From Clostridia bacterium (lineage in GTDB: Bacteria; Bacillota; Clostridia; Oscillospirales; CAG-272), in contig JAFVQC010000048.1 in NCBI GenBank assembly GCA_017504995.1, positions 58,946 through 122,945 on the forward strand: 64,000 bases of DNA, in the 5' to 3' direction. The position numbers were made by a program, and so were the translations under genes. Numbering within the stretch: position 1 is the stretch's first letter; every line of letters begins with the position of its first letter. A model generated the notes under the pieces. That model ran no database searches. It was not told the origin of the DNA and was given only the letters and a program-made list of their open reading frames with translations. Shown one piece after another: positions 4,270 through 49,846 of the stretch.

Positions 4270-4362
4270 ACGTCCCTCCCAAGCTTTTTCTTTGTTAGTA
4301 TTCCGTTTCTACGCTCCGATCATACCACCCTCTTGATAAATTTGCCGTTTCTTTCTGTATGA

Positions 4363-4396: not shown

Positions 4397-4428
4397 ATGT
4401 CGTTTTTTAGGGGATCAAGCTTTTTGGA

Positions 4429-4527: not shown

Positions 4528-4608
4528 CTTCGGTCCTCCTTGAAAGGTTTGAATCAAGGGCGATTGCCCTTCGATACTATCATATGACGGAGAACCTCAT
4601 TTGGTGCA

Positions 4609-5676: not shown

Positions 5677-5855
5677 TTCAAATTCCTCCTGCCATTGCGG
5701 CATATTTTAGTCATTGTACTGCTATTATAAGACAAATCTATCGTCAATTCAAGTCAAGAAATGATATTTTCAAGACAAATATTGCTTATTTGGCGCGTTT
5801 TTCCCTTTGTTTTTCCCTCGCTGCTTTCTTTTTTCTTGATTTTTCAAAAAAACTA

Positions 5856-5884
5856 TTGAGAAAAAGAAAAAAATATTATATAAT
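5856..5884 (+). promoter_or_regulatory. sigma-A type promoter upstream of lepA
   Basis: TTGAGA (5856-5861), 17-nt spacer, TATAAT (5879-5884). Confidence 0.6.
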
Positions 5885-5931
5885 ATTAGTAGTAACCGAT
5901 TCTATAGAGATAATAAAAACGGAGTAGATTC

Positions 5932-34767: not shown

Positions 34768-35766
34768 ATGGCACATTTTGAAGGTTATGAGAGACGCGAG
34801 GCGAAGATCCTTGCTGTCCTGAAGGAATACGGCATCTCCTCCATCGACGAGTGCAAGGAGATCTGCACCGCAAAGGGAATCGACCCCTACAAGATCGTAG
34901 AGGAGACCCAGCCCATCGCGTTTGAGAACGCAAAGTGGGCGTACACCGTCGGCGCGGCGATCGCAATCAAGAAGGGTTGCGTGAAGGCTGCTGACGCCGC
35001 AGCCGCAATCGGTATCGGTCTGCAGGCGTTCTGTATCCCCGGATCGGTTGCAGAAAACCGTAAGGTTGGTCTGGGCCACGGAAATCTGGGCGCAATGCTG
35101 CTGTCCGAGGAGACCGAGTGCTTCTGTTTCCTGGCAGGTCACGAGTCCTTCGCGGCTGCCGAGGGCGCAATCAAGATCGCGCTCAACGCAAACAAGGTGC
35201 GTGTAAAGCCCCTGCGCGTGATTTTGAACGGTCTTGGTAAAGACGCCGCTATGATCATTTCCAGAATCAACGGCTTTACCTACGTGCAGACCGAGTTTGA
35301 TCCCTATACCGAGGAGGTTAAGGTGATCAAGGAGACCGCGTACTCCAACGGTGACAGAGCAAAGGTCAAGTGCTACGGCTCCGATAGCGTGCCCGAGGGC
35401 GTTGCGATCATGAGACTGGAAAACGTTGGCGTATCCATCACGGGTAACTCCACCAACCCCACCCGCTTCCAGCACCCCGTTGCAGGCACCTACAAGAAGT
35501 GGGCAATCGAGAACGGCAAGAGCTACTTCTCCGTAGCGTCGGGCGGCGGTACGGGACGTACCCTGCACCCCGATAACATGGCGGCAGGCCCTGCTTCCTA
35601 CGGTATGACCGATACCCTCGGAAGAATGCACGGCGACGCGCAGTTCGCGGGATCTTCCTCCGTTCCAGCTCACGTAGAGATGATGGGACTTATCGGCGCA
35701 GGTAACAACCCCATGGTGGGAATGACGGTAGCAGTAGCCGTAGCGATTGAGGAAGCAAGCAAATAA
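34768..35766 (+). CDS. GGGtGRT family protein (uncharacterised)
   Basis: 332 aa containing the eponymous ASGGGTGRTL motif. Its last 30 codons are duplicated at 48605-48697. Confidence 0.75.
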   Translation: MAHFEGYERREAKILAVLKEYGISSIDECKEICTAKGIDPYKIVEETQPIAFENAKWAYTVGAAIAIKKGCVKAADAAAAIGIGLQAFCIPGSVAENRKVGLGHGNLGAMLLSEETECFCFLAGHESFAAAEGAIKIALNANKVRVKPLRVILNGLGKDAAMIISRINGFTYVQTEFDPYTEEVKVIKETAYSNGDRAKVKCYGSDSVPEGVAIMRLENVGVSITGNSTNPTRFQHPVAGTYKKWAIENGKSYFSVASGGGTGRTLHPDNMAAGPASYGMTDTLGRMHGDAQFAGSSSVPAHVEMMGLIGAGNNPMVGMTVAVAVAIEEASK

Positions 35767-35902
35767 TCCTTGCGGCGTAAGGCTTTTTGAGACTTTCTTG
35801 ATTTCAAGGAATCATTGAAAAAGATCTTTAGCTGAAAATCACAAATAAAAAGTTGGACACATCATTTACGTGTTTTTGCACGATGATGTGTCCAATATTT
35901 TA
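35673..35902 (+). repeat. left direct repeat (attL region) of the island
   Basis: Aligns to 48604-48848. It covers 30 codons plus the stop, the block TTGCGGCGTAAGGCTTTTTGA and a GGACACATC-stem terminator. The middle part is divergent. Confidence 0.85.
35853..35902 (+). terminator. terminator downstream of the GGGtGRT gene (island-side copy)
   Basis: TTGGACACATCAT (35853-35865) / ATGATGTGTCCAA (35883-35895) followed by TATTTTA. Confidence 0.7.
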
Positions 35903-35976
35903 TATATCAAAATTCAAACAAAAAATTAAAACAGTAAATCAAAAAAGAATTTAGTATCATATAAGTGCTTCAACAA

Positions 35977-37653
35977 TTATTTTTTCCATATTTGTAAAGC
36001 ATAGGAAGCAAACTCTTGTTGACGCGTTTCAATTTCCACTGCAGTCCAAGCAAGACAATTCGCTAAAGAAGGATTCGGCTCAATTTTAGATTCCTCATAT
36101 CGTTCTTTTTTGCTTTCAAACATTCTATTGGAGATTTCTCTATTAAAAGCTCCACTTAAAAGTGCTAGGTTCCCCAATCTCCAAAGATATGTTTCGTGAA
36201 CATCATCATCCACCTGCCAAATCGAATTGTCCTCCGGCATAATATGTTCAATGTGTACTTCAGTATTATCAATATTTATTTCATTGGAGGAGTCTAAAAA
36301 TTTATGAACCTTTCGAAGAATATACCGAATAGGCTCCTTTGCCGTTTTTGATCCACTCCAAATCTTGAACATATCATAAAATTCTTGATCTCCAACCATT
36401 TCATGCTTAATGCGCGCAATAATTAATTCTTTAGTACTTAATACTCCGTCATAAATTTCTTTAGCGATCGTTGCAAAAATTACTTCTGCCTTGTTTGCAA
36501 CTTTACCGCAAATGGTAAAGTTACGGAACACATAGACCTCAATCGTTTGAATAACTTCACGGATTTCTTGTTCATTAAATTCAGATGGCGCTTGTTTAAT
36601 TGCAAGAACTACGGGATAAAAAGTACTTGCTTTAAGCATTTTCAATGCCTTTAAGCTGTTAATTAATTGTATGTCGCTAAAACCAACATTATCGTCAGGA
36701 GCAGAAATATCATGATAGCACTGCGCGCACGAAGCTAGGTTCCTAAGGAACTCCTTGCTTGCTCTAGGGCTAGAAATAATTTTGCTAATACTTTTATACA
36801 AACTTTTTTCTCGAGTAAATGCTTGTGTCGCATTCCAATAATGACGAATGTACTTCGTGGGGTCTGCCTGATCTAATGTATTAATCATTGAATTCCAAAG
36901 ATTTTGTGCCGAAATAATATCCTGCGTTTGACTAAACACAAAATTTTTCAACAAATCAGCAGTTTCCAAATCTTTGCCTCGCGCGTTAAGCGTTTCAAAA
37001 ATAACAAACGCCTCCTCTAATTTTGTGGCCTCCATATACAGAACGCTAAATCGTTTAGTAAATGTATCATAATATTCATCTAAAACGTCCAGTTTGTCCT
37101 CCACATCTATAGGTTGATCCATCTTCTCTTTAATACGCTCATAGAAATACACATATGCTTTTCGAAGTCTTTCGTGCGATTTTTTTCTAACCCGCACCGT
37201 ATCTTCAGGAGATCCCAATTGAATCTTCTCACGGAAATACTCATTGTCCAATTCACCAAGATGCAAATGCAACTCGTCATTTGAGTCTGACAGGTATCGC
37301 CCGATGTGAATACTGGAAATATCTGATTTTCTATAGTCCGCTCTTTGTCTTCCCGTATCTCTATAAATCAAGTCGTAAAAGTATTGTAATGTACGCATAA
37401 ATATCATGGAGGTAATAGTTCTTTGCTGACCGTCAATGATATATTTCTTCCGGTTTGTTTCATCGTTATGAACCACAATTTGCCCAAAAAAGTGCTCCGA
37501 ATTTTCGCCACTTATTCTGGTCGCATTAAGGTCATCCCAAAAATCTTCAAGTTCAGCCACTTCCCATGAATATTCGCGTTGGTAATTTGGAATATAGTAG
37601 ATTTTACTCAAAAAAGTATTCATTGGTTCGATTGAGCAATTTTGTAATGCCAT
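35977..37653 (-). CDS. GmrSD-type DUF262/DUF1524 nuclease (putative type IV modification-dependent restriction enzyme)
   Basis: 558 aa. N-terminal IPNYQREYSW and IIDGQQRTITS (DUF262/ParB-like). C-terminal HIEHIMPED..LGNLALLSGAFNREISN (DUF1524 His-Me finger). Confidence 0.85.
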   Translation of the reverse strand: MALQNCSIEPMNTFLSKIYYIPNYQREYSWEVAELEDFWDDLNATRISGENSEHFFGQIVVHNDETNRKKYIIDGQQRTITSMIFMRTLQYFYDLIYRDTGRQRADYRKSDISSIHIGRYLSDSNDELHLHLGELDNEYFREKIQLGSPEDTVRVRKKSHERLRKAYVYFYERIKEKMDQPIDVEDKLDVLDEYYDTFTKRFSVLYMEATKLEEAFVIFETLNARGKDLETADLLKNFVFSQTQDIISAQNLWNSMINTLDQADPTKYIRHYWNATQAFTREKSLYKSISKIISSPRASKEFLRNLASCAQCYHDISAPDDNVGFSDIQLINSLKALKMLKASTFYPVVLAIKQAPSEFNEQEIREVIQTIEVYVFRNFTICGKVANKAEVIFATIAKEIYDGVLSTKELIIARIKHEMVGDQEFYDMFKIWSGSKTAKEPIRYILRKVHKFLDSSNEINIDNTEVHIEHIMPEDNSIWQVDDDVHETYLWRLGNLALLSGAFNREISNRMFESKKERYEESKIEPNPSLANCLAWTAVEIETRQQEFASYALQIWKK

Positions 37654-37873
37654 AGTATTACCTCTTTTCGCAAAGATTACAGTTTAATTGTACCATAATT
37701 CTCATAAAAAAGCAAGACCATTCCAAAACATATATATTTAGAACTTATTAATAATCACCCATTTTACAACCTCTTTGCAAACAATCCCCCTTCCCCTATT
37801 CGCAAATGCATTAAAATACGTTATAATGCTCTTGGCAAAACGATGTATCTGATACCCTTGGGAGGATTTTACC

Positions 37874-38812
37874 ATGAAAAAGCTGAAGATGACCACTCAA
37901 AAACTAACCTTTTCAGAGGGCTGTGAGAAGTATCTGGAACACTGTCGGCAGAGGAATTTGAGGCAAGGAACGATCAATCACTATAAGCAGAGTTACACGC
38001 AGTTCTTTAAATACTTCGATCCTCAAATGCCTATTGAGGACATCGACGAGCAGAGCTATAAGGACTACGTTCTGCACCTCAAGGCGACGCTCAACAATGA
38101 CACAAGTATTAATTCATATCTTCGGGATCTCATAACGACTATTCATTTTTTCATGAACGAAGGCTGGCTTCCCTACTTCAAGATGCAGGCGATCAAGGTT
38201 GATAAAAGCCATATCGAGACCTATAACGAGAATGAACTACAACTGCTTTTGAAGAAACCAAACATCAAAAAATGCTCCTTTACCGAATACCAATGTTGGG
38301 TGATGACGAACTTCTTTTTCAGCACAGGAGTAAGGCAGCGGAGTTTGATGCACATTCAGATCAAGAACATCGATTTTGATAACAACGTCGTCTACGTCAA
38401 CGTGACAAAGAATAGAAAGCCTTTGATCGTTCCTCTCAATCGAACGATGTCTGGTATCCTCTCCGAGTACTTGAAATACAGACAACATAAATCAAATGAC
38501 GACTTTCTCTTCTGCAACGTCTTCGGTCAACAGCTCACGAAAAGCACCTGCTATCATATGCTCTATGAGTACAACAAGCGTCGAGGCGTACAGACCACAG
38601 GCATCCACCGCTACCGCCATACCTTCGCAAAGCAATGGATCCTCAACGGCGGCAACGTCGTCTCCCTCTCAAAGCTTCTCGGACATAGCAGTTTGGAAAT
38701 CACACAGAACTATATCCACCTTCTCACCAGCGATATAGCTGAACAAGTTGACGAATTCAACGTACTGGATAAGTTTTATGGGAAGAAGCGCATTTTCATG
38801 ATTAAAGAATAG
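37874..38812 (+). CDS. tyrosine-type site-specific recombinase/integrase
   Basis: 312 aa. ..STGVRQRSL.. (Arg I), HRYRHTFA (His-x-x-Arg), LGHSS, and the catalytic Tyr in ITQNYIHL. Confidence 0.9.
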   Translation: MKKLKMTTQKLTFSEGCEKYLEHCRQRNLRQGTINHYKQSYTQFFKYFDPQMPIEDIDEQSYKDYVLHLKATLNNDTSINSYLRDLITTIHFFMNEGWLPYFKMQAIKVDKSHIETYNENELQLLLKKPNIKKCSFTEYQCWVMTNFFFSTGVRQRSLMHIQIKNIDFDNNVVYVNVTKNRKPLIVPLNRTMSGILSEYLKYRQHKSNDDFLFCNVFGQQLTKSTCYHMLYEYNKRRGVQTTGIHRYRHTFAKQWILNGGNVVSLSKLLGHSSLEITQNYIHLLTSDIAEQVDEFNVLDKFYGKKRIFMIKE

Positions 38813-38838
38813 CCATTACCTAAATAATGCAAAAAAAC

Positions 38839-38867
38839 TTGAAATATTCATAATTATGTGATATAAT
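38839..38867 (+). promoter_or_regulatory. near-consensus sigma-A promoter driving the structured RNA/leader
   Basis: TTGAAA (38839-38844), 17-nt spacer, TGaTATAAT (38859-38867). Confidence 0.75.
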
Positions 38868-38873
38868 AAAAGA

Positions 38874-39078
38874 GCCAAACTAATCGAATACTTTTTAGAG
38901 CGTATTTTTACTTTAGGGTGACTATACTCTTTTTGTCGTACACATTTTTATAGTAGAATTTGATAAAAACGCAAATTCCGGCTATGAAGATGTGTTAATA
39001 CGCTCTTACAGTAGATTAGTTTGGCGACTATCGGAGTTTGCGTTTTTTAGGCGTTGACTTCGGTTGGCGCCTTTTTTA
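38874..39078 (+). ncRNA. candidate structured RNA or attenuating 5' leader of the 39122-42133 operon (class unknown)
   Basis: 12-bp perfect helix 38874-38885/39014-39025. Coaxial 10-bp helix 38897-38906/38997-39006. A 15-17-bp helix 38965-38981/39031-39047 ends in a U tract. A second terminator hairpin at 39050-39071 is followed by TTTTTTATTTT. Confidence 0.55.
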
Positions 39079-39121
39079 TTTTAATAGTCTCGAAACTTAA
39101 CACACGAAGGAGAACCGCGCG

Positions 39122-40843
39122 ATGAACATTATGTTTATTCTTATCCCATGTATAGCTTGTTTGATTATCGCCATTGTTGGTGTCTTCATAGCAAAAAAGC
39201 AAAATACCAAGTCAAATGAGAAATATGTTGCTTCAGAGAATGCTACTTTCACACATATTGTCACCGCCACCAGCCAAAAGCCCTCCCCCACTGCTTTTGT
39301 GATATGGCTGATAGCCACCATTGTGCTTTTGGGCGGTGCAATAACGCTCGGAATTTTCACATTACTTTGGGGAGACGATTATCAATATTACAAAGAAGAG
39401 TGCGAAGAAATAAAATCAAAAATGAGTTTGGAACAGCCTTTTGATGAGTTTGAAGAGTTTATTGCCGCATGCAAAAGCGAAGAGGTTGAAGATGGTGTCG
39501 ATTTAGCCCCTTATTGGAACAACTATGTATATGCTATGGAGCAGCGTGGATTCGATTACTTACGGTCATCCAATTGGGCTATGGAATCAAGTTCATATTA
39601 TCTGGATTGGTATGACGTGCAAGATATTGCAAAAAGCACAGGATTCATGAAGGATAAGTATGATGAATACGGAGGTTTAGTGTCTGCCAATGCAACAGAC
39701 GCTGCGTACGCAAACGCATTCGAAAACGAGCTTTTGAAGAAGCTCAACAACGTCATCCATCAAAATTTAACAAAGGAGTTAGCAGCAAAAGAGGAATACA
39801 CAGGAGAGGTTCTTCTTATTACCATCGTTGCTTTCTTTATTCCATGCGTTATCTGTCTTGCGCTTGGCATTGTTGGTATCTTTGTAACGATAAAGCAACG
39901 CAAAAAGCTGAAGGAATGGCGCGTGGCTTACGAATCTGCTATACAGGAGCGTGCTACTGCCGAGAATTTGGAAAAGCAACAATATCTTTTGAAGCTGGAA
40001 GAAATGCAGAGAAGAATTGACACTTTGGAGGGAAAAGCTCCGACGGAAGTTACTTCTCAAAGTACAATGCAAGCATCACCAAAACGAGCGGAAGATTTCC
40101 TGCGTACAACCTCGTCATCTCAACAAGATACAAGCGCGCCCACGAGTTCAAATGGCCCGAAACCTATTGAGCAATCGTCGGCGTTTACGCCACATATAGA
40201 TGTGAAAAAAAGAACTTTGCTTCAAACTCTAAGCGACATAGAAAAAGATAAAGAAGGAATTGTTAAATTTCTTTTAGCTGTGGCTTTCTTCCCTTTGAAA
40301 ACGATTCTACGAACCATAGCACTTCCTAATACATGCTCCACACTTGTTAAGGCGGATACAATGGCAAAGGAAATTGCTGCAAAAGGAAACGCATACTTAG
40401 CCGAGGGCTATGAAAACGTGAGACGCCGCGAAGCGAGGGAAGCTTACGAAAAAGCAAATACGACTCAAGAAAAGATGGAGTTTTTCTATTGTTATTTTTC
40501 TTCTGTTGAGAATTGCAAAAAGCCGACGTTGTGCGCATACATTATGACGTATATTGCCGAAAACAGTAGTCTTTTTGATAAAAACGATCCGTTACACTTA
40601 GCTTCCTATTTTGCAGATGATGTTGATAACGCCTTGTACTCATTGCTTGGATTTGATCCGCAGGAAACAACAAATGGTCGACATTACGAACATTTGCTGA
40701 GAGTAAATGACGGAGAGCGGGGCTCTGATAAGTATATTTTACAGTGTCTGATAATCGCGGCAAATGGTAGCGAAGGTGACTCGGTTCCACTCTACAAATA
40801 TGATATTCTTGGGCAAGAGTGCATGTCCGAGGATGCAGAATAA
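39122..40843 (+). CDS. hypothetical membrane protein (3 TM, coiled coil, Ser/Thr/Gln-rich linker); no domain recognised
   Basis: 573 aa. GAAGGAG RBS. TM1 and TM3 are an internal duplication: IPCIACLIIAIVGVFIAKKQ versus IPCVICLALGIVGIFVTIKQ. Confidence 0.75.
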   Translation: MNIMFILIPCIACLIIAIVGVFIAKKQNTKSNEKYVASENATFTHIVTATSQKPSPTAFVIWLIATIVLLGGAITLGIFTLLWGDDYQYYKEECEEIKSKMSLEQPFDEFEEFIAACKSEEVEDGVDLAPYWNNYVYAMEQRGFDYLRSSNWAMESSSYYLDWYDVQDIAKSTGFMKDKYDEYGGLVSANATDAAYANAFENELLKKLNNVIHQNLTKELAAKEEYTGEVLLITIVAFFIPCVICLALGIVGIFVTIKQRKKLKEWRVAYESAIQERATAENLEKQQYLLKLEEMQRRIDTLEGKAPTEVTSQSTMQASPKRAEDFLRTTSSSQQDTSAPTSSNGPKPIEQSSAFTPHIDVKKRTLLQTLSDIEKDKEGIVKFLLAVAFFPLKTILRTIALPNTCSTLVKADTMAKEIAAKGNAYLAEGYENVRRREAREAYEKANTTQEKMEFFYCYFSSVENCKKPTLCAYIMTYIAENSSLFDKNDPLHLASYFADDVDNALYSLLGFDPQETTNGRHYEHLLRVNDGERGSDKYILQCLIIAANGSEGDSVPLYKYDILGQECMSEDAE

Positions 40844-40861
40844 GAATGGAGGGATAATGAT

Positions 40862-42133
40862 ATGACAACAGAAATAAATACAATGATTCAAGAATTGGAT
40901 CGCATTGATGCTCTTTGCCATAAAAAAGATGAGTTGCAAATTGCTTTGGGGCTGGCAGATGGCGAAAAAGACAACAGAGACATAAAAGCCTTAAATAACA
41001 AAAACAAAAAAGCAAGAGCCTTTCAAACGCAGAGAAGCGCTAAACTTCCGCAACTGAATCACGGGATAAATCTTGAAGGCGACAATGCTCCGACTGCTGT
41101 TAAACCGTGGAGGGAGCCTCTCGTGCTTTTTGACAAGAAAGCAAACGCATGGATACCAAAAAAGCACTACAGCAACGACTTGATTCGTGATTTTGTCGTT
41201 TCGTGGTTATTTGTAGCATTCCTTATCGGTTTAATTGTTAGCGCGGTATTATTGGCAACCACAAGCGCCTACTCAGCATATATTATGTTTTGCATTTTCG
41301 GTTTCGGTTTTATAGCTTCCGGTATAGCATGCTTGTTGTTATACAGTTCCATAGAATTCAATGATGAGTGGGTTGAAGGCATAAAACGCAGGCATGTAGG
41401 CAAAGAGCAGTATGACGAAAAGGTGAAGGAATGGGAAGACGCGACCAAAAACTATATTTCTGAATTCTGCAAGAATGATCACGCCAATGTTATAGATACT
41501 CTTATTGCATCGGTAGAAAAATATGACAAGGATTTTCTTGGTATGGTAGCTGATTGTGAGACTACTTTAGAGGCGCTCGACGATGAATATCGTCACCAGC
41601 TTCAAGAAAGCTACTATACGTACGAGGCAGACATAGCTGCAATTAAAGCCGATATCGCGGAAAACGAAAAAGAACTAAGCGCTATCACTTTAATTCATCC
41701 CGACCTGTTCAGAAAGGCTGCAAAAATATCTGCTGTTCTTAAAATGTATCGTGCAGAGTCGTTGCCTGGGGCTATCAATATAGTTTTCGATGATGAACGT
41801 CGTGAAGCCGAGGAAGCAGAACGGAGAGCAGAAGCAGAAAGACGCGAGCGACTCTTGGAGCAACAGATTAGGGAAAACAGGTTTGCGGCAGAAGAAGCAG
41901 CACGTGAAATGCGTCAACACAACGAAGCGATGGAAAAGCAAGCGCAGGAAGCACAAAGAAAAGCGGATCTTCAAAGAGAAAGAGATAATCAAGCCGCAGA
42001 AAATCTGCTGAAGCAGAGAAAAAAGGCTGCCAGCGACAGATGCTATCATTGTGCAAATTCCTCCTGCTCCTTAAGAGTGAGATCGAGCTTCTATAACACC
42101 GGTGATGTTTGTCCTAATTACAGACCAAAGTAA
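40862..42133 (+). CDS. hypothetical membrane protein (2 TM, long Glu/Arg coiled coil, C-terminal Cys cluster); no domain recognised
   Basis: 423 aa. GGAGGG RBS 18 nt after the upstream stop. C-terminus CYHCANSSC..x17..CPNY. Confidence 0.75.
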   Translation: MTTEINTMIQELDRIDALCHKKDELQIALGLADGEKDNRDIKALNNKNKKARAFQTQRSAKLPQLNHGINLEGDNAPTAVKPWREPLVLFDKKANAWIPKKHYSNDLIRDFVVSWLFVAFLIGLIVSAVLLATTSAYSAYIMFCIFGFGFIASGIACLLLYSSIEFNDEWVEGIKRRHVGKEQYDEKVKEWEDATKNYISEFCKNDHANVIDTLIASVEKYDKDFLGMVADCETTLEALDDEYRHQLQESYYTYEADIAAIKADIAENEKELSAITLIHPDLFRKAAKISAVLKMYRAESLPGAINIVFDDERREAEEAERRAEAERRERLLEQQIRENRFAAEEAAREMRQHNEAMEKQAQEAQRKADLQRERDNQAAENLLKQRKKAASDRCYHCANSSCSLRVRSSFYNTGDVCPNYRPK

Positions 42134-42231
42134 AAGCAAACGATTTACATAAAAAACATTTACAAAACAATGTGAATTTTGAAAAGGGATTTTGACTTCT
42201 TACTTAAAAAAGCCAAAGTTCCTTTTCTGTT

Positions 42232-42942
42232 TTAAATTTGTTTGGTATGATCTTTAAGCTCTCTCTTATACTTATAATAACTATTCCTCGAACACCCACA
42301 AAGTTTGATAACATCGGGATCTTCAAGGCTACCACCGAAGTCTTTGGCGTGTTTCAATATGATAGCCTTACACTCAATAGACTTCTTGGTGGTAAGGGGT
42401 GAGCCTTTGGTAAGACCTATCTGTGTCCCATTCTTTTTAGCTTCACGGATTCCTTGACTGATTCTTGAATGAAGGTCGGTGACTTCTTTTTCGGCTTGGT
42501 CAAAAGCGGCTTTGATCTGTTCCTCTGCCAAAGCTAATATGAAATCATTAATCAATTGGATATTGCCCTTAAAGAAAGCGTCAACTGCTTGATTTCCAGT
42601 GTCGATGCTGACGTTCAGCAGTTTGCTTTTGGTGGCATCGAGAACAGATGTATTTATAAGTGGCTCGTTAAGAAAGACGAGGTTAATGCCACGCTCATAG
42701 AGCATTTTATAATCTTTATAGCCCTCTGCGCTATTACGCGCCATTCGGGAGACACTGTCGAAAACGATGGTGTCTTCCTTTTTTACTTGGGGTATGAATT
42801 TCTCCCAATGTGGACGGTTCTGTGTAGTACCTGTGTAAAATTCTTTGATGATAATTGCATTCGGGTAGATAGCGGTGATATTGGTGATCTGTCGGGCGAT
42901 TTTCTGATGTTGGGTGCTAACGCGGCAATAAGCATAGATCAT
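42232..42942 (-). CDS. small serine recombinase (resolvase/invertase family)
   Basis: MIYAYCRVSTQHQ (nucleophile Ser), ..VFDSVSRMARN.., C-terminal HTH region. Confidence 0.9.
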   Translation of the reverse strand: MIYAYCRVSTQHQKIARQITNITAIYPNAIIIKEFYTGTTQNRPHWEKFIPQVKKEDTIVFDSVSRMARNSAEGYKDYKMLYERGINLVFLNEPLINTSVLDATKSKLLNVSIDTGNQAVDAFFKGNIQLINDFILALAEEQIKAAFDQAEKEVTDLHSRISQGIREAKKNGTQIGLTKGSPLTTKKSIECKAIILKHAKDFGGSLEDPDVIKLCGCSRNSYYKYKRELKDHTKQI

Positions 42943-43110
42943 AATGTGTACTTCCTTTCAGCATTGAAACAAACTAAAGTTTCTTTTGATGCTATCATTA
43001 TGCCGTGTATTTGCTAATTGGGCACGAACTTTCGGTATAACTTTTGCGAACTTTGTTTTGGTGCTGATGTTAAAAAATATAGCCATGGCGATATGCTATA
43101 GCTATATACA

Positions 43111-43126
43111 AAGATAGATCTATCTT
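43111..43126. repeat. perfect 16-bp palindrome AAGATAGATCTATCTT
   Basis: Read directly from the sequence. It lies in the divergent region between the serine recombinase and the Rep-like gene. Confidence 0.9.
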
Positions 43127-43198
43127 AAGCTTTTTATTTCATTCAATTAATTTAGCGCTTTGTTTTGTAATATTATATGGACAAGTATAAAAACTAGT

Positions 43199-43227
43199 GC
43201 TATAATTATATAGGTAACAGTTGCAAA
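43199..43227 (+). promoter_or_regulatory. TATAAT box plus iteron-like motif ATAGGTAACAGTTGCAAA, copy 1
   Basis: TATAAT at 43199-43204. The 18-nt motif at 43210-43227 is identical to 44643-44660. It lies 25 nt upstream of the Rep-like start. Confidence 0.6.
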
Positions 43228-43251
43228 TCAAGACAGATGCGAGGGGCTATT

Positions 43252-44604
43252 ATGATATCGGTAGTGGAAATTGCGAGTAGATTGGTAGATAGAAAAGAAT
43301 ATGAGTTTAGTGTTAATAAGGTGGGCTGGGAACCTAAACGAGCTGAATCTTATACGCTACCGGCATTTCATATAACTGAGAGCAAAGCCAAAGGAGCAGA
43401 GGCAAAGCTTAGAACAAAGTTAAGTAAGGTCTTGGCGTTTATTGATACGGTGAAGCATAAGCGTTTTAAAGGCGGCTGTACCATTATGCCTATTAGTGTA
43501 ACGAACAAGGATAACTTGGCAATCTGGGGCGACAAGATGGGCGTTTCAAGAGCGATTGCTTATATGATAGAAATTGGACTGATAAGTGTCGAGAGTGATA
43601 AATATCAGTTTGGAGCTTATTATGATAAAGATAATAAGAGCAAGTCGTATTACTATTATAAAGAGAACGAGGACAAGGTCAAGGCATATTGTGAAGCGCA
43701 TGGCATTACTATGCACGTGGTTCAGAATAAGGTATATGACATGGCTGAGGTTAAAAGCGTTCCTCTGGCAATGGATAAGTCTATGGTGCGTTTTGCAACG
43801 GGACTTAAGCTGATAAGACCTGAGGACCTGAGCAAGGCGGAGTTTGAGAAGCAATTGACTTTGTGCTTATATGAGAACTACCCGGGCTTGCGGTTTCATA
43901 TCATAAAGGCGAACGAGATCAACGAGAGATATTATAAGGACTATCCGGAATTTCGGATTCGTTTTCAGCCGAATTTTACTTGGTCAGACGATGATCTGTA
44001 TGTAAGTAGGATCGGTATCAGAGCAACGAATTCCATGATCAATGTTAAGAAAGAGGTACGTAAAGAAATATTAAATGTGTATGGCTTGAACTTGGAGCAT
44101 GATATTAATGCTTCAGTGCCGCGTATGACGGCATCTTTGAACGCGGGGCGTTGGATTGATGAGGCGGAAGATATGTACGAGCTCATATTTCGTGTTATGG
44201 AGCCGAATGGCGACTTCAACCATGAAGTGCGTGAAGCAATCAAAAAGCTTCATATGCGAGCTTATTTTGACTCTGGGGACAAGCTTACAGGGCATCATAC
44301 TTGGTTGTCGATGGATCAGAGTGGCATTGATAGAGAGGACGTTTGCGATACTATGAAAGCTTTTCGTGAAGCAATTATAGAAGCTGAGGGCGGTAAGCTT
44401 TATGGGAGTGATATCTTTTACATTGAGTCATGTGTATATCTGATGACGTTATATGATCTGGTTACATCGGGGCATAAGGTGTGGCAGGTTTATGATTGCT
44501 TTTATGCGACGGGGGAAGAAGATCAAGAGTTGTTTGATTTTATGATTTCAAATGGAGTAAAGAGAAATTTTGAAGATTTCTTGTCGGTTTGGTGGAAAGT
44601 ATAG
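43252..44604 (+). CDS. hypothetical protein with an N-terminal HTH-like segment; possible replication initiator
   Basis: 450 aa from the Met at 43252 (GAGGGG RBS). ..MGVSRAIAYMIEIGLI.. is HTH-like. Flanked by repeated motifs and an AT-rich stretch. The functional call rests on context only. Confidence 0.4.
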   Translation: MISVVEIASRLVDRKEYEFSVNKVGWEPKRAESYTLPAFHITESKAKGAEAKLRTKLSKVLAFIDTVKHKRFKGGCTIMPISVTNKDNLAIWGDKMGVSRAIAYMIEIGLISVESDKYQFGAYYDKDNKSKSYYYYKENEDKVKAYCEAHGITMHVVQNKVYDMAEVKSVPLAMDKSMVRFATGLKLIRPEDLSKAEFEKQLTLCLYENYPGLRFHIIKANEINERYYKDYPEFRIRFQPNFTWSDDDLYVSRIGIRATNSMINVKKEVRKEILNVYGLNLEHDINASVPRMTASLNAGRWIDEAEDMYELIFRVMEPNGDFNHEVREAIKKLHMRAYFDSGDKLTGHHTWLSMDQSGIDREDVCDTMKAFREAIIEAEGGKLYGSDIFYIESCVYLMTLYDLVTSGHKVWQVYDCFYATGEEDQELFDFMISNGVKRNFEDFLSVWWKV

Positions 44605-44633
44605 AGATAAAAAATATAAATAATAAATATAAT

Positions 44634-44745
44634 ATATATACAATAGGTAACAGTTGCAAAAAGTGTGGCGGAAAAGATAAAAAAAGATATTTATAGTGAG
44701 AGAGATAGAAATTATATAATATATACAATAGGTAACAGTTGTAAA
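44634..44745 (+). repeat. two further iteron-like copies (23 nt identical, 85-bp period) in a very AT-rich stretch
   Basis: ATATATACAATAGGTAACAGTTG occurs at 44634-44656 and 44719-44741. Each copy is preceded by a TATAAT-like box. Confidence 0.8.
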
Positions 44746-44780
44746 AAAACAGATAATTCGGGGTGAATTATCTGTTTTTG
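44743..44780. terminator. bidirectional terminator
   Basis: ACAGATAATTC (44749-44759) / GAATTATCTGT (44765-44775), flanked by AAAAAAA and TTTT. Confidence 0.75.
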
Positions 44781-44793
44781 ACTTTATATGGGA

Positions 44794-45123
44794 TTATTTA
44801 TTGGAATAAATAATATTTATGATTTGTTTAAGTGAGTAGTCGTTTTTGATAAGGTCTATGGAATGAATAACATGAGGATATTTGGAAGGATGGGTATATG
44901 AGGTGGTAAGTATTTTAATGAGAGATTTATACGTGTTGATATTATATTTAGAGGATGTGGTGAAGTAGAAATTTAAGAATTTTTGGTAAGTATCTTCAGA
45001 CATGAAGAAATTACAATGGATATTGAGTTGTTGGTAGACGAAGAAGAGGAGATCGAGTTGATTGATAGTTAGGGTATCGATTTGAGTTTGAATGAACGTG
45101 GACGAATAAATTTTACTTTTCAT
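44794..45123 (-). CDS. hypothetical small protein (109 aa), paralog of 45289-45666
   Basis: AT-rich codon usage. It has its own promoter and terminator. Shares DL(L/F)xF(V/F)Y..LN.H.N......FL.. and ..(I/V)IN..Y with its neighbour. Confidence 0.6.
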   Translation of the reverse strand: MKSKIYSSTFIQTQIDTLTINQLDLLFFVYQQLNIHCNFFMSEDTYQKFLNFYFTTSSKYNINTYKSLIKILTTSYTHPSKYPHVIHSIDLIKNDYSLKQIINIIYSNK

Positions 45124-45156
45124 AATATAAAATTCCTTTCATTTAAAATATTTTAT

Positions 45157-45184
45157 ATTATAAAATACAGTTTTATTTTGTAAA
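45157..45184 (-). promoter_or_regulatory. putative promoter of the 109-aa ORF
   Basis: On the minus strand: TTTACA (45184-45179), 16-nt spacer, TATAAT (45162-45157). Confidence 0.5.
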
Positions 45185-45210
45185 ATCTAATCGTTTTACG
45201 AAAAAAGGTC

Positions 45211-45250
45211 GAAAATTGAAAAAGCTGATGATCCATACCGGACCATCAGC
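45211..45250 (-). terminator. intrinsic terminator of the 125-aa ORF
   Basis: Minus strand GCTGATGGTCC..GGATCATCAGC (one mismatch) followed by TTTTTCAATTTTC. Confidence 0.7.
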
Positions 45251-45288
45251 CTTTGTTATTGATATTTTGTGCTATCAATATATCTTAA

Positions 45289-45666
45289 TCAGAATACGTC
45301 GTAGCCGAAAGCGTCTACGTTAGCGTAGTAGTTGTTGATTACTTCATCAATCGTAAATTTCTTTTTGAGCAGTAGCGTTGCAGTCAGCAGACTCATATGG
45401 TCAAAGCAATATTTTGTCAGATTTTCAATCAGTTCCTTTCTAAATGCTTTGTCCTCATGATGCCTGAATGGGTTGCTGTTAAAAGCCTCAAGGAACTCAT
45501 TGAACTTGTCATTGTAGATCATATTTCCGTGCTGGCAGTTCAGCTTATAGAAAAAGATAAATAAGTCGTGTAGCCCGGAGTCACTCATGGTTTCCAGTTC
45601 TTTAATCAATGTTTCTGTTGTTTTGTTAATAGGGGTATTTGTATTTTCAATATTTGCCATAATCAT
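45289..45666 (-). CDS. hypothetical small protein (125 aa), paralog of 44794-45123
   Basis: ORF in the track; no domain recognised. See the paralogy evidence above. Confidence 0.6.
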   Translation of the reverse strand: MIMANIENTNTPINKTTETLIKELETMSDSGLHDLFIFFYKLNCQHGNMIYNDKFNEFLEAFNSNPFRHHEDKAFRKELIENLTKYCFDHMSLLTATLLLKKKFTIDEVINNYYANVDAFGYDVF

Positions 45667-45729
45667 TCTTCTTTCTATCTGTAATCATTAGAACCGCAAC
45701 AGAGCACAAATTATTGCCGTTCGTATAAT

Positions 45730-45867
45730 TTAGCAGATATTTGAAGAATCGGTGGTAGGTAAAAGCACCTCAATAGCAATCCTCGCTCCAAGCCGAAAGG
45801 CATAGACGAAGACCTCACGTTCGTTGATCTCCGTCAGTTTGTCGTAGTAATGATTGAAATAAATGTC
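45730..45867 (-). pseudogene. 5'-truncated gene remnant (45 codons, no start codon)
   Basis: Locally GC-richer patch. The minus frame reads DIYFNHYYDKLTEINEREVFVYAFRLGARIAIEVLLPTTDSSNIC-stop, with an in-frame TAA immediately upstream. Confidence 0.35.
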
Positions 45868-45896
45868 TTAAGCTAATATATTTACATATAAATATA

Positions 45897-45928
45897 AATA
45901 GCTAGGTGCGAAAACACCTAGCTATTTA
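45897..45928 (-). terminator. hairpin terminator after the SIR2-NTPase gene
   Basis: AAATAGCTAGGTG / CACCTAGCTATTT 13-bp stem, 15 nt past the stop codon. Confidence 0.65.
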
Positions 45929-45942
45929 TAAACATATTTTTA

Positions 45943-48210
45943 TCAGATTTGATTTAACAAAAATATTATATGTTTGTTAGAACCATTTGCTTCATTGTTT
46001 GCAATCTCCAGCCATTGTTTGGCTTGATCAATATATTGGAAATTATTCCAAAAATTCTTTAAGTAAATAGCAAATTCAGCATATTTGATAGCGTGAAAAA
46101 TTTTCCTTTTATCGTTATTAAAGCAACTTTCAAGGATTTCCATCGCCTCTATAAGTCCAGATAACGCAATATCGGTCTTTTTATCTTTATTTGCTTCAAA
46201 AAGTATGATGGCACGCGTATTTTTTATACTAAAATTATTTCTTTGCATATTAATTGCTTTGTCAATGTCACGAAAAGCTTCAGAGTAATTCCCATTTAAT
46301 GCTTTATAAAGTGCCCATTGTTGAAGATTATATGCACTAGAATCAGTATTAAATAATCTTTGATATAAGTTGTTAGCATTTTCACCGAATAGTTGCTTCA
46401 TCATGCGCGCATCATATGCTTTTCTTTTAAATATATGATTTTTATATATAACATGTGGTGGTACATTTTCAATGAATTTTTGGATCACCGCCGAATATTC
46501 TCTATTATAAAATTTCATTAACGCAGCAGAGGAATAATATAGAAACATATTCGATCTTAAACTATAGTAATCTTGGTCAGACATATCAGAAGAAAACTCT
46601 AAATCATATTCCCACAAATAGCTCTTTACTTTTCGAACTTCGTTTTGTATATATTCATAATTACTAGTGTTGAAATAAGAAAAAAGCACATCGGTATTAA
46701 GTAATGATCTATTAACAGATAGATACGTCGTTAATGCTACGATTTCAAATCCTATTTGAGATTGTTCTTTTATCCGTTCAAGAATAATCTTTACTTTTTG
46801 AATTGATAATACTTTATAAACATTATCCGCTACAAATTCAAGCATGGAATATTGTTGATTATCATTGTTGTTATAAGAAAAAGTTCTCTTCTTTATGGCT
46901 TTGGGGATCTTATTATATATTCTTTGAGCTTCCTCTAATTTTAATTCGTGTATATTTACACACTCAAAATTGAAGCCTACAAGTTTATGCTTTGATGATT
47001 CAAAAGCATAGTCGTCAGCAAACCCGATTACTTTAAATTTATTTTGTTCCATCAATAGAGCTATAGCGTCGATGTCATCGCAACAATTATCTATAAAAAT
47101 CGTAATGTCCGTATCGTGATATCGGTTTACAAACAATTTCGCTTGCTCGTAGGTAATGCTATTCATAACGACTTTATTGTCAACTATTATTTTTGAAGCT
47201 AACTGCATTAACATTGTTGTTTTTCCCGAAAATGGAATTCCGATGCATAACAAATTTTTAGTTGTTAGATATTTCTCATATGCCAAATTAACGTATTTAG
47301 TTTCATAGGCGTAATTTGCTAATATACAATACCAGTGCGTTTGACCAAGAGAAAAGTAATTTTCTGCAGAAACAACTTCAACTTGGTTTATAGTGGGAAT
47401 TTGATATTCGATTGGTGGTTGAAAAACATTAGATGGTGGTAACACATAATTGTCAAGTTTTTCGTCTATCCACGTTAATAGGCTTTCGGTATCGGCTTCT
47501 ATTACATAACAACCTAGTTCACGAAAATAATTTGCATTCGAATGATTATTATAGCATTGAACCCAGATATTATGCCTCTTTTCTTGAATTACTTTAGATA
47601 TTATACGTTCAACGGCATTGTCATGAAATCCATATCCCATAAACAAAGTAGGAGCTTCAAGGAGTTTGGCATGCATAGTATCAAACAAAGCTCTGTTATC
47701 AACATCTACATTTGCTAATTCGAATTTTCCAAAATATAAGTTGCTTTCATTTTTAACTTCACCATGTAAGGGTATATAAGTTATTATATCTTTATTTTTT
47801 TTACTGGCACCATACCGAGTAATATCATTTAGAAAATATCTTGAACTATTATCTATAACACATTGAATAGTATTATCTATATTAGTAGTTATATACGATT
47901 TAATGGTTATTTTATTTAAAGTATCATATAAAGGATTATACGATGATACTGTATATTTTTCTCTTAAAAAAGATTGAAATAAATCTTTAGATCGCGTAGA
48001 TGCGATATTAGATACTCTTTCCAAGTCACAACTAAAAGATTCGGATATATTGAACATCTTACAGATTTCAGAGCTTAATGCGGTAGCATCAGGTAAAATG
48101 TTTCCATCTTTGTCTGGCAATTTAGAAAAGCCTGCACCTGTAAACAAGTTTATACCATTTTTTAGAGTTTCAATAAAAAGATTTTCATAATCAATAATTG
48201 GTTTCATCAT
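45943..48210 (-). CDS. SIR2-like domain / P-loop NTPase / TPR-like repeat protein (Avs5 / SIR2-STAND-like antiphage candidate)
   Basis: 755 aa. N-terminal SIR2_2-type motifs LFTGAGFSK, YITTNIDN, IPLHGEV, LFMGYGFHDN. Walker A GIPFSGKTTM and Walker B-like ITIFIDNCCDD. Helical TPR-like C-terminus. Confidence 0.75.
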   Translation of the reverse strand: MMKPIIDYENLFIETLKNGINLFTGAGFSKLPDKDGNILPDATALSSEICKMFNISESFSCDLERVSNIASTRSKDLFQSFLREKYTVSSYNPLYDTLNKITIKSYITTNIDNTIQCVIDNSSRYFLNDITRYGASKKNKDIITYIPLHGEVKNESNLYFGKFELANVDVDNRALFDTMHAKLLEAPTLFMGYGFHDNAVERIISKVIQEKRHNIWVQCYNNHSNANYFRELGCYVIEADTESLLTWIDEKLDNYVLPPSNVFQPPIEYQIPTINQVEVVSAENYFSLGQTHWYCILANYAYETKYVNLAYEKYLTTKNLLCIGIPFSGKTTMLMQLASKIIVDNKVVMNSITYEQAKLFVNRYHDTDITIFIDNCCDDIDAIALLMEQNKFKVIGFADDYAFESSKHKLVGFNFECVNIHELKLEEAQRIYNKIPKAIKKRTFSYNNNDNQQYSMLEFVADNVYKVLSIQKVKIILERIKEQSQIGFEIVALTTYLSVNRSLLNTDVLFSYFNTSNYEYIQNEVRKVKSYLWEYDLEFSSDMSDQDYYSLRSNMFLYYSSAALMKFYNREYSAVIQKFIENVPPHVIYKNHIFKRKAYDARMMKQLFGENANNLYQRLFNTDSSAYNLQQWALYKALNGNYSEAFRDIDKAINMQRNNFSIKNTRAIILFEANKDKKTDIALSGLIEAMEILESCFNNDKRKIFHAIKYAEFAIYLKNFWNNFQYIDQAKQWLEIANNEANGSNKHIIFLLNQI

Positions 48211-48604
48211 GCCCTCCGATTGAAAGATTATAATTAATTATAATTAAAATATTATAATTAAAATGTTGTAATATAATTATACCATTTTTTTCGACATTAT
48301 TCAACTGTTTTTTGCTTTTATTTCTATTGTTTGAGTGTTTTGAAACATTCCGCAGTTTATTTAAAGTACGTTATTGCCCCTACAATCTACGTTATTAACT
48401 GATTGGTTAGCAAAAAAGTCGCAAATAAACTTCCTCCAAAGCCGTGTACGAAAGCCTAAAAACACGATATAATGCATTCAGCAAAACTTAATATGATGTG
48501 TTCGACGTAATGGATTTTGCAATGCAATTATATCAAAAGGCTTATATTTCAAGGCTTTGGGCGGCAGCTATTCACCCCGAAGCTATAGTTAAAGCTCCTG
48601 AAGC

Positions 48605-48697
48605 GTAGAGATGATGGGACTCATCGGCGCAGGTAACAACCCCATGGTCGGTATGACTGTAGCGGTTGCGGTTGCGATCGAAGAGGCAAGCAAATAA
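48605..48697 (+). pseudogene. orphan 3' fragment (30 codons plus stop) of the GGGtGRT gene
   Basis: Encodes VEMMGLIGAGNNPMVGMTVAVAVAIEEASK, identical to the end of 34768-35766. An in-frame TGA lies at 48599-48601. Confidence 0.85.
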
Positions 48698-48728
48698 GTC
48701 TTGCGGCGTAAGGCTTTTTGAACGATTC

Positions 48729-48776
48729 GTAGGGGCGAACTGCGTTCGCCCGCGGGCGTTCACAGAACGCCCCTAC
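48729..48776. repeat. GTAGGG-family palindromic element
   Basis: GTAGGGGCG..CGCCCCTAC outer stem enclosing two inner hairpins (GCGAACTGCGTTCGC; GGGCGTTCACAGAACGCCC). Confidence 0.8.
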
Positions 48777-48798
48777 AAACAAAATAAATAAAAAAGTT

Positions 48799-48848
48799 GG
48801 ACACATCATTTTCGCGTTTTGCGAGAGGATGTGTCCGATATTTTTATG
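48799..48848 (+). terminator. terminator (host-side copy) after the orphan gene fragment
   Basis: GGACACATC (48799-48807) / GATGTGTCC (48828-48836) followed by GATATTTTTAT. Confidence 0.65.
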
Positions 48849-48901
48849 TATAAGACGTGATCAACAAAAAGCAGAGCAGAAGTATATGTCAGAAGAATGG
48901 T

Positions 48902-49846
48902 TTAATTGTTGTGACAGTTTGTGATGTGTTCAATAAATTTTTGGCAGGCAATAGAACGATATTGATTTTTCTTTTGATAGAAGTAAATATTTCTCGCAAT
49001 TTCTGAATCGCTCAAGCGATAATATCGCATAGGGGCGTGTGGCTCCATATTTTTTACAAGCGTATCACTGACGAAGCAGATTCCCAATCCCGAGGAGGAA
49101 ATGTTATAGGCGGTGATCTGCTGGTCAAGTCGAAACAGGATATTGGGGTTTATAAGATGCTTTTTGAAGAGAAAATCTGCTCGATTCCCCGTGTCGTTTT
49201 CAGAATTGAGCAAAACAAACGGAAGATCCGCAAACCGTTCTAGCTCTACGGCGTATTTGGCGTCGAGATGCATTCCTGCTTTTACCTCTGTTGTACGCAA
49301 AGCAAAAGCCCCCATTTCCGCATGGATGGAAAAGCTATCGGGTACGGCGAGGAGAAGTATCTCTGAAGCGCAGATGGTATGAAAAAGAGCTTCGTTTTTC
49401 AGCATTACGTTGTCGATCACCAGATCAAGCTCGCCTGCTGCAAGATCACGCATAAGATTTTTGGTGTTATTTTCAAATATTTTTATTCGAACGCGCGGAT
49501 GTTTTTTGTTAAAATCAGCGATCATGCGAGGTAACATAAACGCAGAAAACAAGCTGCTTGCCCCGATTTTGATTTCTCCTATGGAAAGATTGACCAGATC
49601 GCTGATATATTGCTCCAGTTCCCGTTCAATTCTTTCAATCTCGTTGGCTCGCTGCACGTATTCTTTTCCTGCTTCTGTGAGGGCAATGGGATTGCTTGTA
49701 CGGTCAAAGATCGGAACAGTCAATTTCTCCTCGATCCGCTTGACGGTAGCGCTTAACGAGGGCTGTGAAATATAAAGCTTTTCTGCTGCTTTGGAGATTC
49801 CTCCCTCTCGAACGATCGCCAATACGTATTCTTTGTTTCTAAACAT
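48902..49846 (-). CDS. LysR family transcriptional regulator
   Basis: N-terminal HTH ..GGISKAAEKLYISQPSLSATVKRIE... Start at the Met preceded by GGAGGAAC. Divergent from aspA. Confidence 0.9.
   Translation of the reverse strand: MFRNKEYVLAIVREGGISKAAEKLYISQPSLSATVKRIEEKLTVPIFDRTSNPIALTEAGKEYVQRANEIERIERELEQYISDLVNLSIGEIKIGASSLFSAFMLPRMIADFNKKHPRVRIKIFENNTKNLMRDLAAGELDLVIDNVMLKNEALFHTICASEILLLAVPDSFSIHAEMGAFALRTTEVKAGMHLDAKYAVELERFADLPFVLLNSENDTGNRADFLFKKHLINPNILFRLDQQITAYNISSSGLGICFVSDTLVKNMEPHAPMRYYRLSDSEIARNIYFYQKKNQYRSIACQKFIEHITNCHNN

Follow-up and report, generated by a model that had tools for sequence, protein, structure and literature searches.

A structured leader RNA family of gut Clostridia that probably acts as a transcription attenuator

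We analyzed a structured RNA encoded in a 64,000-nt stretch of a Clostridia bacterium genome (assembly GCA_017504995.1, contig JAFVQC010000048.1, positions 58,946 to 122,945 of the forward strand; hereafter the window, in which all coordinates below are counted unless a locus is named). The unit spans positions 38839-39082, encodes a predicted RNA of ~205 nt between promoter and terminator and stands ahead of a gene for a 573-aa protein. It probably represents a family of cis-acting 5′ leaders that work as riboswitch-like transcription attenuators controlling read-through into the following gene, a reading to which we give a probability of about 0.75. The leader lies in the 5′ untranslated region (UTR) of a co-oriented open reading frame (ORF), ends in a covarying intrinsic terminator and conserves an alternative pairing that excludes this terminator, which are among the features by which an attenuator is recognized. 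Although very common in gut Clostridia, their phages and their integrative elements, the leader is apparently undescribed, and we filed it as a new RNA class with a known mechanistic kind of logic, namely terminator, antiterminator and anti-antiterminator.

A preliminary description of this DNA had proposed a consensus promoter followed by three long helices and a further hairpin. The promoter was found at the proposed site and matched the consensus at 11 of 12 positions, with the TG of the extended −10 element present, which predicts a transcription start at about 38873-38875, where ~38874 is the first base of the outermost helix, P1. The 12-bp helix P1 and the 10-bp helix P2 were both perfect, the third helix (helix 3, 38965-38980 with 39032-39047) was 94% complementary over 16 nt with U6 at its end, and the next hairpin (39049-39072) was followed directly on its 3′ side by the T-run TTTTTATTTT, with a ribosome-binding site (RBS) just beyond. 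Between the linker that follows P1 and this last hairpin, T2, lies the core of a segment C, GGAGUUUGCGUUUUU(U). That such helices would rarely arise by chance was borne out by folding, as the minimum free energy (MFE) of the 216-nt stretch was −72.7 kcal/mol compared with −42.8 ± 3.7 kcal/mol for 200 dinucleotide shuffles (z = −8.2), none of which reached the native fold energy.

To describe the family, we used a search pattern built from two conserved 15-mers, which matched at least 120 species-representative genomes of Clostridia. All family statistics were drawn from the matches listed, and comprise 116 distinct members, 109 loci and a 101-member alignment (A3). A covariance model (R1, from alignment A1) built from 45 members scored family members at 97-193 bits and the window copy, the sole copy in the 64 kb, at 169.5 bits (E ~1e-32). 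The core fold had a mean z of −6.6 among the 116 members, with 99% of them below −3. The sense strand folded 10.6 kcal/mol more stably than its reverse complement, and did so in 112 of 116 members (p ~ 2 × 10−20), while G.U made up 10.8% of all pairs. Where P1 was imperfect, the position held G.U in about 25 members and a non-pair in 2. Tolerance of G.U but not of A.C, together with better folding of the sense strand, indicates that the selected feature is the plus-strand RNA and not a DNA site, contrary to the earlier suggestion of a DNA-level inverted-repeat site.

Covariation among homologues, a check that the preliminary description had recommended, was assessed in A3. Compensatory changes were found at 13 of the 14 pairs of P1 (96.7% of cells paired) and at 8 of the 10 pairs of T2 (98.7% paired), and the three modelled pairs of P3 were 86% paired with double changes in all three. 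The apical hairpin A:B was paired in 95.3% of cells. The sequences of P2 and of lower P4 are unrelated between members, yet the helix is always there, and the tip of P4 (GAAUUUG-AUAAAAAYG-CAAAUUC) is nearly invariant while the stem below it varies freely. The family promoter follows the consensus TTGAnA-17-TGTGnTAnAAT, with P1 beginning 5-7 nt after the −10 element. The internal loop between P1 and P2 has 3-9 nt on its 5′ side and 0-2 nt on its 3′ side in most members, and its conserved AAUA bulge is favorably placed for what might be a tertiary contact.

Several of these pairings exclude one another. T2, a covarying terminator, is excluded by a likewise covarying antiterminator (AT) in which the linker and C pair with the top of T2 (5′-CNAUCGGAGU with ACUUCGGUNG, plus GCG with UGC), which fits the earlier proposal of a new attenuator. 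AT was paired in 96.3% of cells across the family, compared with 21-63% when the partner was slid. Columns 212-258 of A3 held UA 39, AU 31, UG 14 and GC 3, with the three G-C cases in three P1 backgrounds, and columns 213-257 held AU 87 and GC 3. With C free, the mean energies of AT and T2 were −17.9 and −15.9 kcal/mol, respectively, and AT was the MFE structure in 64 of 101 members, the window included. GUGCG and CUUCGG are invariant in T2 while the middle of its stem is variable, a pattern that AT pairing explains. There is a preference for the changed loop CUCCGG in members that lack the C ahead of GGAG.

Segment C has a second partner in segment B, half of which lies within the weak apical hairpin, and the B:C duplex, helix 3, amounts to −23.0 kcal/mol in the window. 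The only helix 3 position that the search pattern does not fix (columns 132-233) held AU 50, GC 16, UG 6 and UA 4, and helix 3 contains two constant U.G pairs that are possible on the plus strand only. Two copies outside the pattern were informative in this respect. One, at locus L015 (2156-2381), was found by the model alone and keeps the helix 3 pairing through a C-to-U wobble. The other, on the minus strand of locus L109 (6317-6475), has wholly different B and C segments that are nevertheless complementary to each other (−22.2 kcal/mol). This variant is shorter and of higher GC content, lacks P3, has a different but again complementary apical hairpin, its own T2 and a lipoprotein-like ORF downstream, and, judged from a fold of −7.2 kcal/mol and a manual reading, may also have an AT-type pairing. 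The preliminary description had seen helix 3 as a pseudoknot or an alternative to P1 and P2, and its conservation and its proposed behavior as both anti-antiterminator and pseudoknot agree with that view. Of the two terminator-like hairpins that had been described, T2 stands as a covarying terminator, while the role of a switch helix suits helix 3 better than that of a second terminator.

A further hairpin, H5, can form between the distal part of the P1 3′ arm and the linker (UAGU with ACUA), with AU 36, UA 33 and GU 24 at its middle pair (columns 201-212). Mutual information linked columns 12-201-212-258-244 in a chain, such that each column is the alternative partner of the next, in P1, H5, AT and T2. 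Part of this signal could come from shared subfamily descent, but the G-C events, which are independent, suggest that the AT pair at least is structural.

The position of the leader relative to genes was equally consistent. A co-oriented ORF with a Shine-Dalgarno motif lay downstream in 105 of 109 loci (96%), with a median of 27 nt from the T-run to the start codon and 74 ORFs starting within 40 nt, whereas a control of random positions had a co-oriented ORF within 250 nt in 41% of cases and within 60 nt in 12%. The 106 distinct downstream ORFs fell into 71 mutually unrelated Pfam families, including BspA-type leucine-rich repeat (LRR) proteins (14), zinc-ribbon proteins (8 or more), EcoRI-like methylases, SPFH and MazE/AbrB proteins (3 each), as well as dockerin, collagen repeats, YpsA/SLOG, phage Ltp lipoprotein and superinfection-immunity protein. 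About half of the downstream proteins had an N-terminal signal-like segment and 30% a lipobox. The same RNA thus precedes more than 70 unrelated protein families, which does not support the earlier idea of a trans-acting RNA partner of the downstream proteins, and the tie to the membrane-protein operon of the window gave way to a dispersed multi-copy family that is not operon-specific. Upstream genes, judged by their N-terminal sequences, were unrelated and mostly housekeeping. In several species the unit came right after rplM-rpsI, and at three such loci (L031, L047 and L084) it carried three different cargo genes, which suggests that this site is a hot spot of cargo exchange. In L039, L042 and L077 the ORF directly upstream of the unit may encode a four-helix-bundle protein of the "23S rRNA intervening-sequence" or Avd-like kind, which would make a link to diversity-generating retroelements conceivable.

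Carriers among the matches listed were Oscillospiraceae, Acutalibacteraceae, Christensenellaceae, Borkfalkiaceae, some Lachnospiraceae and other Clostridia, from human, ruminant, deer and rabbit guts. The pattern also found one further variant on three viral contigs, in an element resembling an integrative and conjugative element. A search of the RNA against phage records by BLAST gave one partial match, MT835503, which on reading of the contig proved to be a family member. It has the same architecture with different stems, that is, a promoter, the outer helix GUCACACGAAC/GUUCGUGUGAC, another inner helix, the small hairpin, a long hairpin with the same tip as in the window, and the same 3′ block and terminator after it. 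In this record (MT835503.1, locus L001, 60-540) the leader, close to where the record ends, precedes genes of the EcoRI-like methylase and DUF262/HNH types and adjoins a tRNA-like sequence identified by eye. BLAST against the PLSDB plasmids gave no match, and a first viral pattern that included the terminator, and was too strict, had no matches. A relaxed covariance search of ~0.9 Mb of loci added only the first L015 copy and the L109 variant to the pattern matches, the other weak matches being the reverse strand of known elements. When an 18-mer of the L109 variant was used to scan metagenomes, none of the 15 loci it returned fit the model, and these are chance matches.

Family sequence occurs in Logan contigs of both metagenomes and metatranscriptomes. 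In four gut metagenomes that contain the exact locus, k-mer depth was 1820-6583 over the conserved block (39014-39047) and 14-89 over its flanks, so that the conserved 34-mer was 36-130 times deeper than the flanking DNA, and in other runs the depth of the block reached about 30000. Judged roughly from run sizes, there are probably several copies per average community genome, and hence tens per carrier genome. Two full copies stand in tandem in L015 (2156-2381 and 2478-2704), each with its own promoter and terminator, and L109 holds two convergent leader-gene units (4917-5122 on the plus strand and 6317-6475 on the minus strand). Contigs in several runs (X1, X3, X4, X13 and X29), at a depth of about 5-13, join the P1 5′ arm straight to the P1 3′ arm, with joints at 38883/39014, 38880/39019, 38890/39019 and 38894/39014 that skip 119-138 nt of interior. 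These contigs may be short-form leaders (a hairpin and the 3′ block, without B), hairpin-stimulated deletions or assembly artefacts.

A mechanism that would account for these pairings starts with the promoter, from which transcription would begin at the base of P1. A rod of P1, the bulge, P2 and a three-way junction with P3 and P4 would then form from the first ~150 nt, the tip of P4 holding B. In the OFF state, presumably the thermodynamically favored default, C would be captured by B in helix 3, no AT would form, T2 would fold and transcription would stop at the U-run, leaving the ~205-nt RNA. In what we infer to be the ON state, B would instead be locked in the weak apical hairpin, and C and the linker, which P1 formation would leave free for AT, would pair with the top of T2 and block it, such that the polymerase would read into the gene, where the RBS would follow about 10-30 nt further on. 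If helix 3 forms within one molecule, it would be an H-type pseudoknot that places lower P4 and helix 3 (about 30 bp) beside P2 and P1 (about 24 bp), for whose closure the 7-nt linker and the 9-nt displaced strand should be long enough. The U-run at the end of C may be where the polymerase pauses, which would allow helix 3 to form, or where transcription first stops. Some signal would tip the balance, the candidates being a ligand or protein at the apex or pseudoknot, polymerase speed or pausing at the U-run, and Mg2+ or ionic conditions.

Several points weigh against this attenuator. B, C and most of AT are near-invariant, partly since the search pattern fixes them, so that the covariation of helix 3 and AT rests on one or two pairs each and on one divergent locus and is thin, though consistent. 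The counts of compensatory changes were taken over related sequences and are not independent events. The steric feasibility of the pseudoknot is argued from helix lengths, and H5 has no settled place in the model. RNA-level data consist of assembled metatranscriptome contigs, with the transcript ends at T2 being predicted. The downstream genes, in their 71 unrelated Pfam families, point to no ligand, and the first copy in L015 (which a second copy follows) and the copies in L008 and L099 have no ORF downstream, so that some copies may act as free RNAs.

Some of these points feature in other explanations. Under one, which we consider unlikely, the unit encodes a stand-alone, abundant trans-acting small RNA (sRNA) that ends at T2, for example because the B and C 15-mers of one copy bind another copy or a further target, and the downstream genes borrow the promoter through terminator leak. 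An own consensus promoter and strong terminator in each copy, the L015 copy with no ORF behind it, and the abundance of the conserved part in gut DNA together with its presence in metatranscriptome contigs would all fit, but a co-oriented ORF would not be expected right after 96% of copies when random positions have 41%, a covarying antiterminator would be purposeless in a pure sRNA, and we found no second target sites in the window or the loci. Near-invariance of B and C across copies and species, expected if recognition in trans were needed, is explicable by each segment having two pairing partners. Less probable again is a constitutive 5′ module that senses nothing, whether a stabilizing stem with a fixed-ratio attenuator or insulator, or a terminator-resistance RNA of the put or EAR kind. 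P1 begins at the predicted 5′ terminus, where a protective stem is typically found, the consensus promoters have no visible operator and the downstream genes share no function from which a ligand could be guessed. However, a stabilizer needs neither an invariant apex nor an invariant C, and three exclusive pairings that are conserved, two of them covarying, with near-equal energies, are the signature of a switch.

Readings at the DNA level are very improbable. They include an invertible switch with the P1 repeats as sites of a tyrosine recombinase, an attC-like site, the end of a miniature inverted-repeat transposable element (MITE) or insertion sequence (IS), and a single-strand origin. The integrase gene just upstream of the window promoter, the multi-copy occurrence in mobile elements and the resemblance of the P1 arms to short terminal inverted repeats are suggestive, but mismatches on the plus strand are G.T and rarely A.C (about 25 versus 2 in P1), the antisense strand folds worse, and nested variable helices, promoter and terminator are all conserved. 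An inverton was rejected on this strand asymmetry of G.U and fold energy, and contigs of four metagenomes showed no joints at which the strand changes, the inverted orientation not having been searched directly. A MITE or IS end, which the preliminary description had kept in view, was rejected as the orientation to the downstream ORF is fixed, the upstream genes are, by their N-terminal sequences, diverse, mostly housekeeping and not recombinases, and the element carries a promoter and terminator. Integron attC sites and single-strand origins were dropped on the RNA and plus-strand evidence. Least probable of all is a retron msr-msd RNA, in which P1 would be the a1/a2 repeats and P4 the msd hairpin. 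The shape fits, with terminal inverted repeats around a small and a long hairpin, but neither the island ORFs scanned in the window nor the first ORFs after 106 members encode a reverse transcriptase, the base after the P1 5′ arm is not a conserved G, and retrons have nothing to do with terminator/antiterminator logic. Among the island ORFs scanned, no Pfam family matched the 423-aa, the 455-aa and two small ones.

Known RNA classes were also considered. At the Rfam 15 gathering threshold no family matched the leader in the window, in line with the earlier failure to recognize a riboswitch, T-box or sRNA consensus. In E-value mode the best match over 38780-39140 scored 26 bits, its gathering score being 141, and the best-scoring relative (L059) had no Rfam match either. 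We found no description of the leader in that part of the literature that is searchable, from which a catalogue of 3161 microbiome candidates (PMC8040213) was not compared sequence by sequence. A T-box was rejected as there was no Rfam T-box match and the downstream genes encode LRR lipoproteins, zinc-ribbon proteins and methylases, not aminoacyl-tRNA synthetases or amino-acid genes. Pairing of a tRNA CCA end to the UGGC of P1 is unlikely, given that the G varies (column 206 differs in 19% of members). The RNA of a type III toxin-antitoxin (TA) system was rejected on a single 10-nt, two-copy direct repeat, unrelated downstream proteins and the lack of any PADLOC match for the 573-aa and 423-aa ORFs, and a leader peptide on the lack of a conserved ORF. 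The idea of a promoter within T2 was dropped, since TTGACT-17-TATTTT occurs in the window copy without being conserved across the family.

In the window, the leader and its cargo lie in a low-GC island (35900-49000; 29-43% GC compared with 50-55% in the host; Table 1) that resembles a defence island carried by an integrative element, its insertion site lying next to the GGGtGRT gene. The only cargo match to Pfam at threshold was DUF4064, PADLOC and PHROGs gave nothing for the 573-aa and 423-aa ORFs, and neither these nor the 455-aa ORF received a function from Pfam, PADLOC or PHROGs. From its context, the cargo is plausibly a defence or exclusion module. Between the 423-aa and resolvase genes, a weak model match on the minus strand (42147-42250, 15.5 bits), which is kept in an orthologous island (L125, 6873-6976, minus strand), is probably merely a shared terminator. 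The sole match in the window at Rfam gathering level was an S10-Clostridia ribosomal-protein leader (RF03136, 8143-8227, plus strand, 41.8 bits), which places the host in Clostridia.

Orthologues of the window cargo keep the leader. In L125 the leader has 9 differences over 38874-39082 while the protein is 61% identical, and the similarity between L125 (3580-4020) and the window (38700-39140) stops just after the T2 U-run, beyond which L125 matches sequence upstream of a 35%-identical homologue (L127). A near-identical leader on a diverged protein, with similarity ending after T2, indicates that the unit is modular. What precedes the distant homologues of the 573-aa protein in L127 (187-280) and L128 (41-134) is only a 13-bp hairpin together with a T2-like terminator (GGCGGCAACUUCGGUUGGCGCC and its U-run), B and C both being missing, and this UUCG-loop type of terminator may be common in these genomes. 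The L125 island occupies the same chromosomal site as that of the window, adjoining GGGtGRT. No intact integrase gene was called in L125, where sequence resembling an integrase 3′ end lies upstream of the leader with two other ORFs between.

Table 1 Features of the leader unit and the surrounding island, in window coordinates.
Feature	Positions	Strand	Remarks
Sigma-A type promoter	38839-38867	+	−35 TTGAAA 38839-38844, 17-nt spacer, extended −10 TGaTATAAT 38859-38867
P1 5′ arm GCCAAACUAAUC	38874-38885	+	Partner 39014-39025; 12 bp, 100% complementary
Asymmetric 5′ bulge between P1 and P2	38886-38896	+	Conserved (G)AAUA; AAUA at least 90% conserved
P2 5′ arm	38897-38906	+	Partner 38997-39006; 10 bp, 100% complementary
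P3, small hairpin	38915-38930	+	GGG..UAUAC..CYC, then U-run at three-way junction; from MFE folds
P4, long hairpin	38940-38995	+	Variable lower stem 38940-38954 with 38980-38995; conserved apex; from MFE folds of window and 116 members
Apical hairpin A:B	38956-38978	+	GAAUUUG 38956-38962, loop AUAAAAACG, CAAAUUC 38972-38978; −5.0 kcal/mol in window
Segment B AAAAACGCAAAUUCCG	38965-38980	+	5′ arm of helix 3, proposed anti-antiterminator/pseudoknot
P2 3′ arm	38997-39006	+	Partner 38897-38906
P1 3′ arm GAUUAGUUUGGC	39014-39025	+	Distal part 39017-39020 alternatively pairs with linker 39027-39030 (hairpin H5)
Linker GACUAUC	39026-39032	+	Used in H5 or in outer part of antiterminator
Segment C GGAGUUUGCGUUUUUU	39033-39048	+	3′ arm of helix 3 or 5′ strand of antiterminator; U-run at end
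Antiterminator (AT)	39026-39068	+	Linker and C pair with top of T2, 39049-39068; excludes T2; MFE structure in window
Intrinsic terminator T2	39049-39083	+	10-bp stem with UUCG loop (39049-39072), then UUUUUAUUUU
RBS and start of first downstream gene	39107-39124	+	RBS GAAGGAGA 39107-39114; ATG 39122
Cargo, 573-aa and 423-aa membrane or coiled-coil proteins	39122-42133	+	No informative family match
GGGtGRT gene	34768-35766		Beside island
GmrSD type IV restriction gene	35977-37653	−	
Tyrosine integrase	37874-38812		Ends 27 nt before promoter
Serine resolvase	42232-42942	−	
455-aa ORF	43237-44604		No family
SIR2-STAND protein	45943-48210	−	

If the attenuator reading is true, few unannotated regulatory RNAs of the gut microbiome would be more abundant than the leader, which would gate cell-surface and phage-resistance genes, including those for BspA-type LRR lipoproteins, zinc-ribbon membrane proteins, EcoRI-like methylases, SPFH, Ltp and superinfection-immunity proteins. 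Its input would then reveal a regulon-level signal in mostly uncultured organisms. Annotation would also improve, since leader units break metagenome assemblies, and a compact natural ON/OFF leader would become available for Clostridia engineering. The chain of covarying partners through P1, H5, AT and T2 makes it an unusually clear natural multi-state RNA switch. A bolder form of the same reading, which we hold only tentatively and would not bet on, is that the leader is a new class of true sensor RNA for a global signal, which might be a second messenger of the nucleotide type or a molecule tied to infection, or else part of a self-interacting multi-copy network in which B and C 15-mers pair between copies, and that in each genome it co-ordinates tens of genes for surface proteins, superinfection exclusion and phage defence, across gut Clostridia and their phages.

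Comparison with systems that are generally known places the leader beside several of them. ToxIN-like type III TA systems have the same order of promoter, structured RNA, terminator and ORF, and both occur in defence islands. In those systems the terminator sets the ratio of RNA to mRNA. The leader differs from them in having no tandem repeats and in being followed by mutually unrelated proteins that are not endoribonucleases. Cyclic di-GMP riboswitches of Clostridia likewise occur in many copies ahead of surface, adhesin-like and phage-borne genes, but share no sequence or structure similarity with the leader, which has no GEMM-I or GEMM-II match in Rfam, and a second-messenger ligand is only a guess. 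The T-box is also a multi-copy leader of ~200 nt in Firmicutes with an antiterminator that is marginally stable relative to the terminator, whereas Stem I, specifier and T-box sequence are missing from the leader described here. With SAM-I/S-box type riboswitches it shares the 5′ UTR site, a structured sensor domain and an antiterminator that overlaps the terminator, and its strand C resembles the S-box arrangement in being common to the sensor-closing helix and the antiterminator. In contrast to that type, however, its switch helix is a long-range pseudoknot from hairpin tip to 3′ tail, its most conserved nucleotides are in the switching strands and not in junctions, its stems are unusually long and perfect, it has no Rfam match and its downstream genes have no metabolic theme. 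In the pyr attenuator of Bacillus subtilis, the anti-antiterminator is a local hairpin stabilized by a protein, PyrR, and a single pathway unites the target genes. Unlike pyr and trp, the leader has a non-local anti-antiterminator, dozens of unrelated targets and no leader peptide or binding-protein motif that we could see, but like both it is built as a chain of overlapping anti-antiterminator, antiterminator and terminator hairpins.

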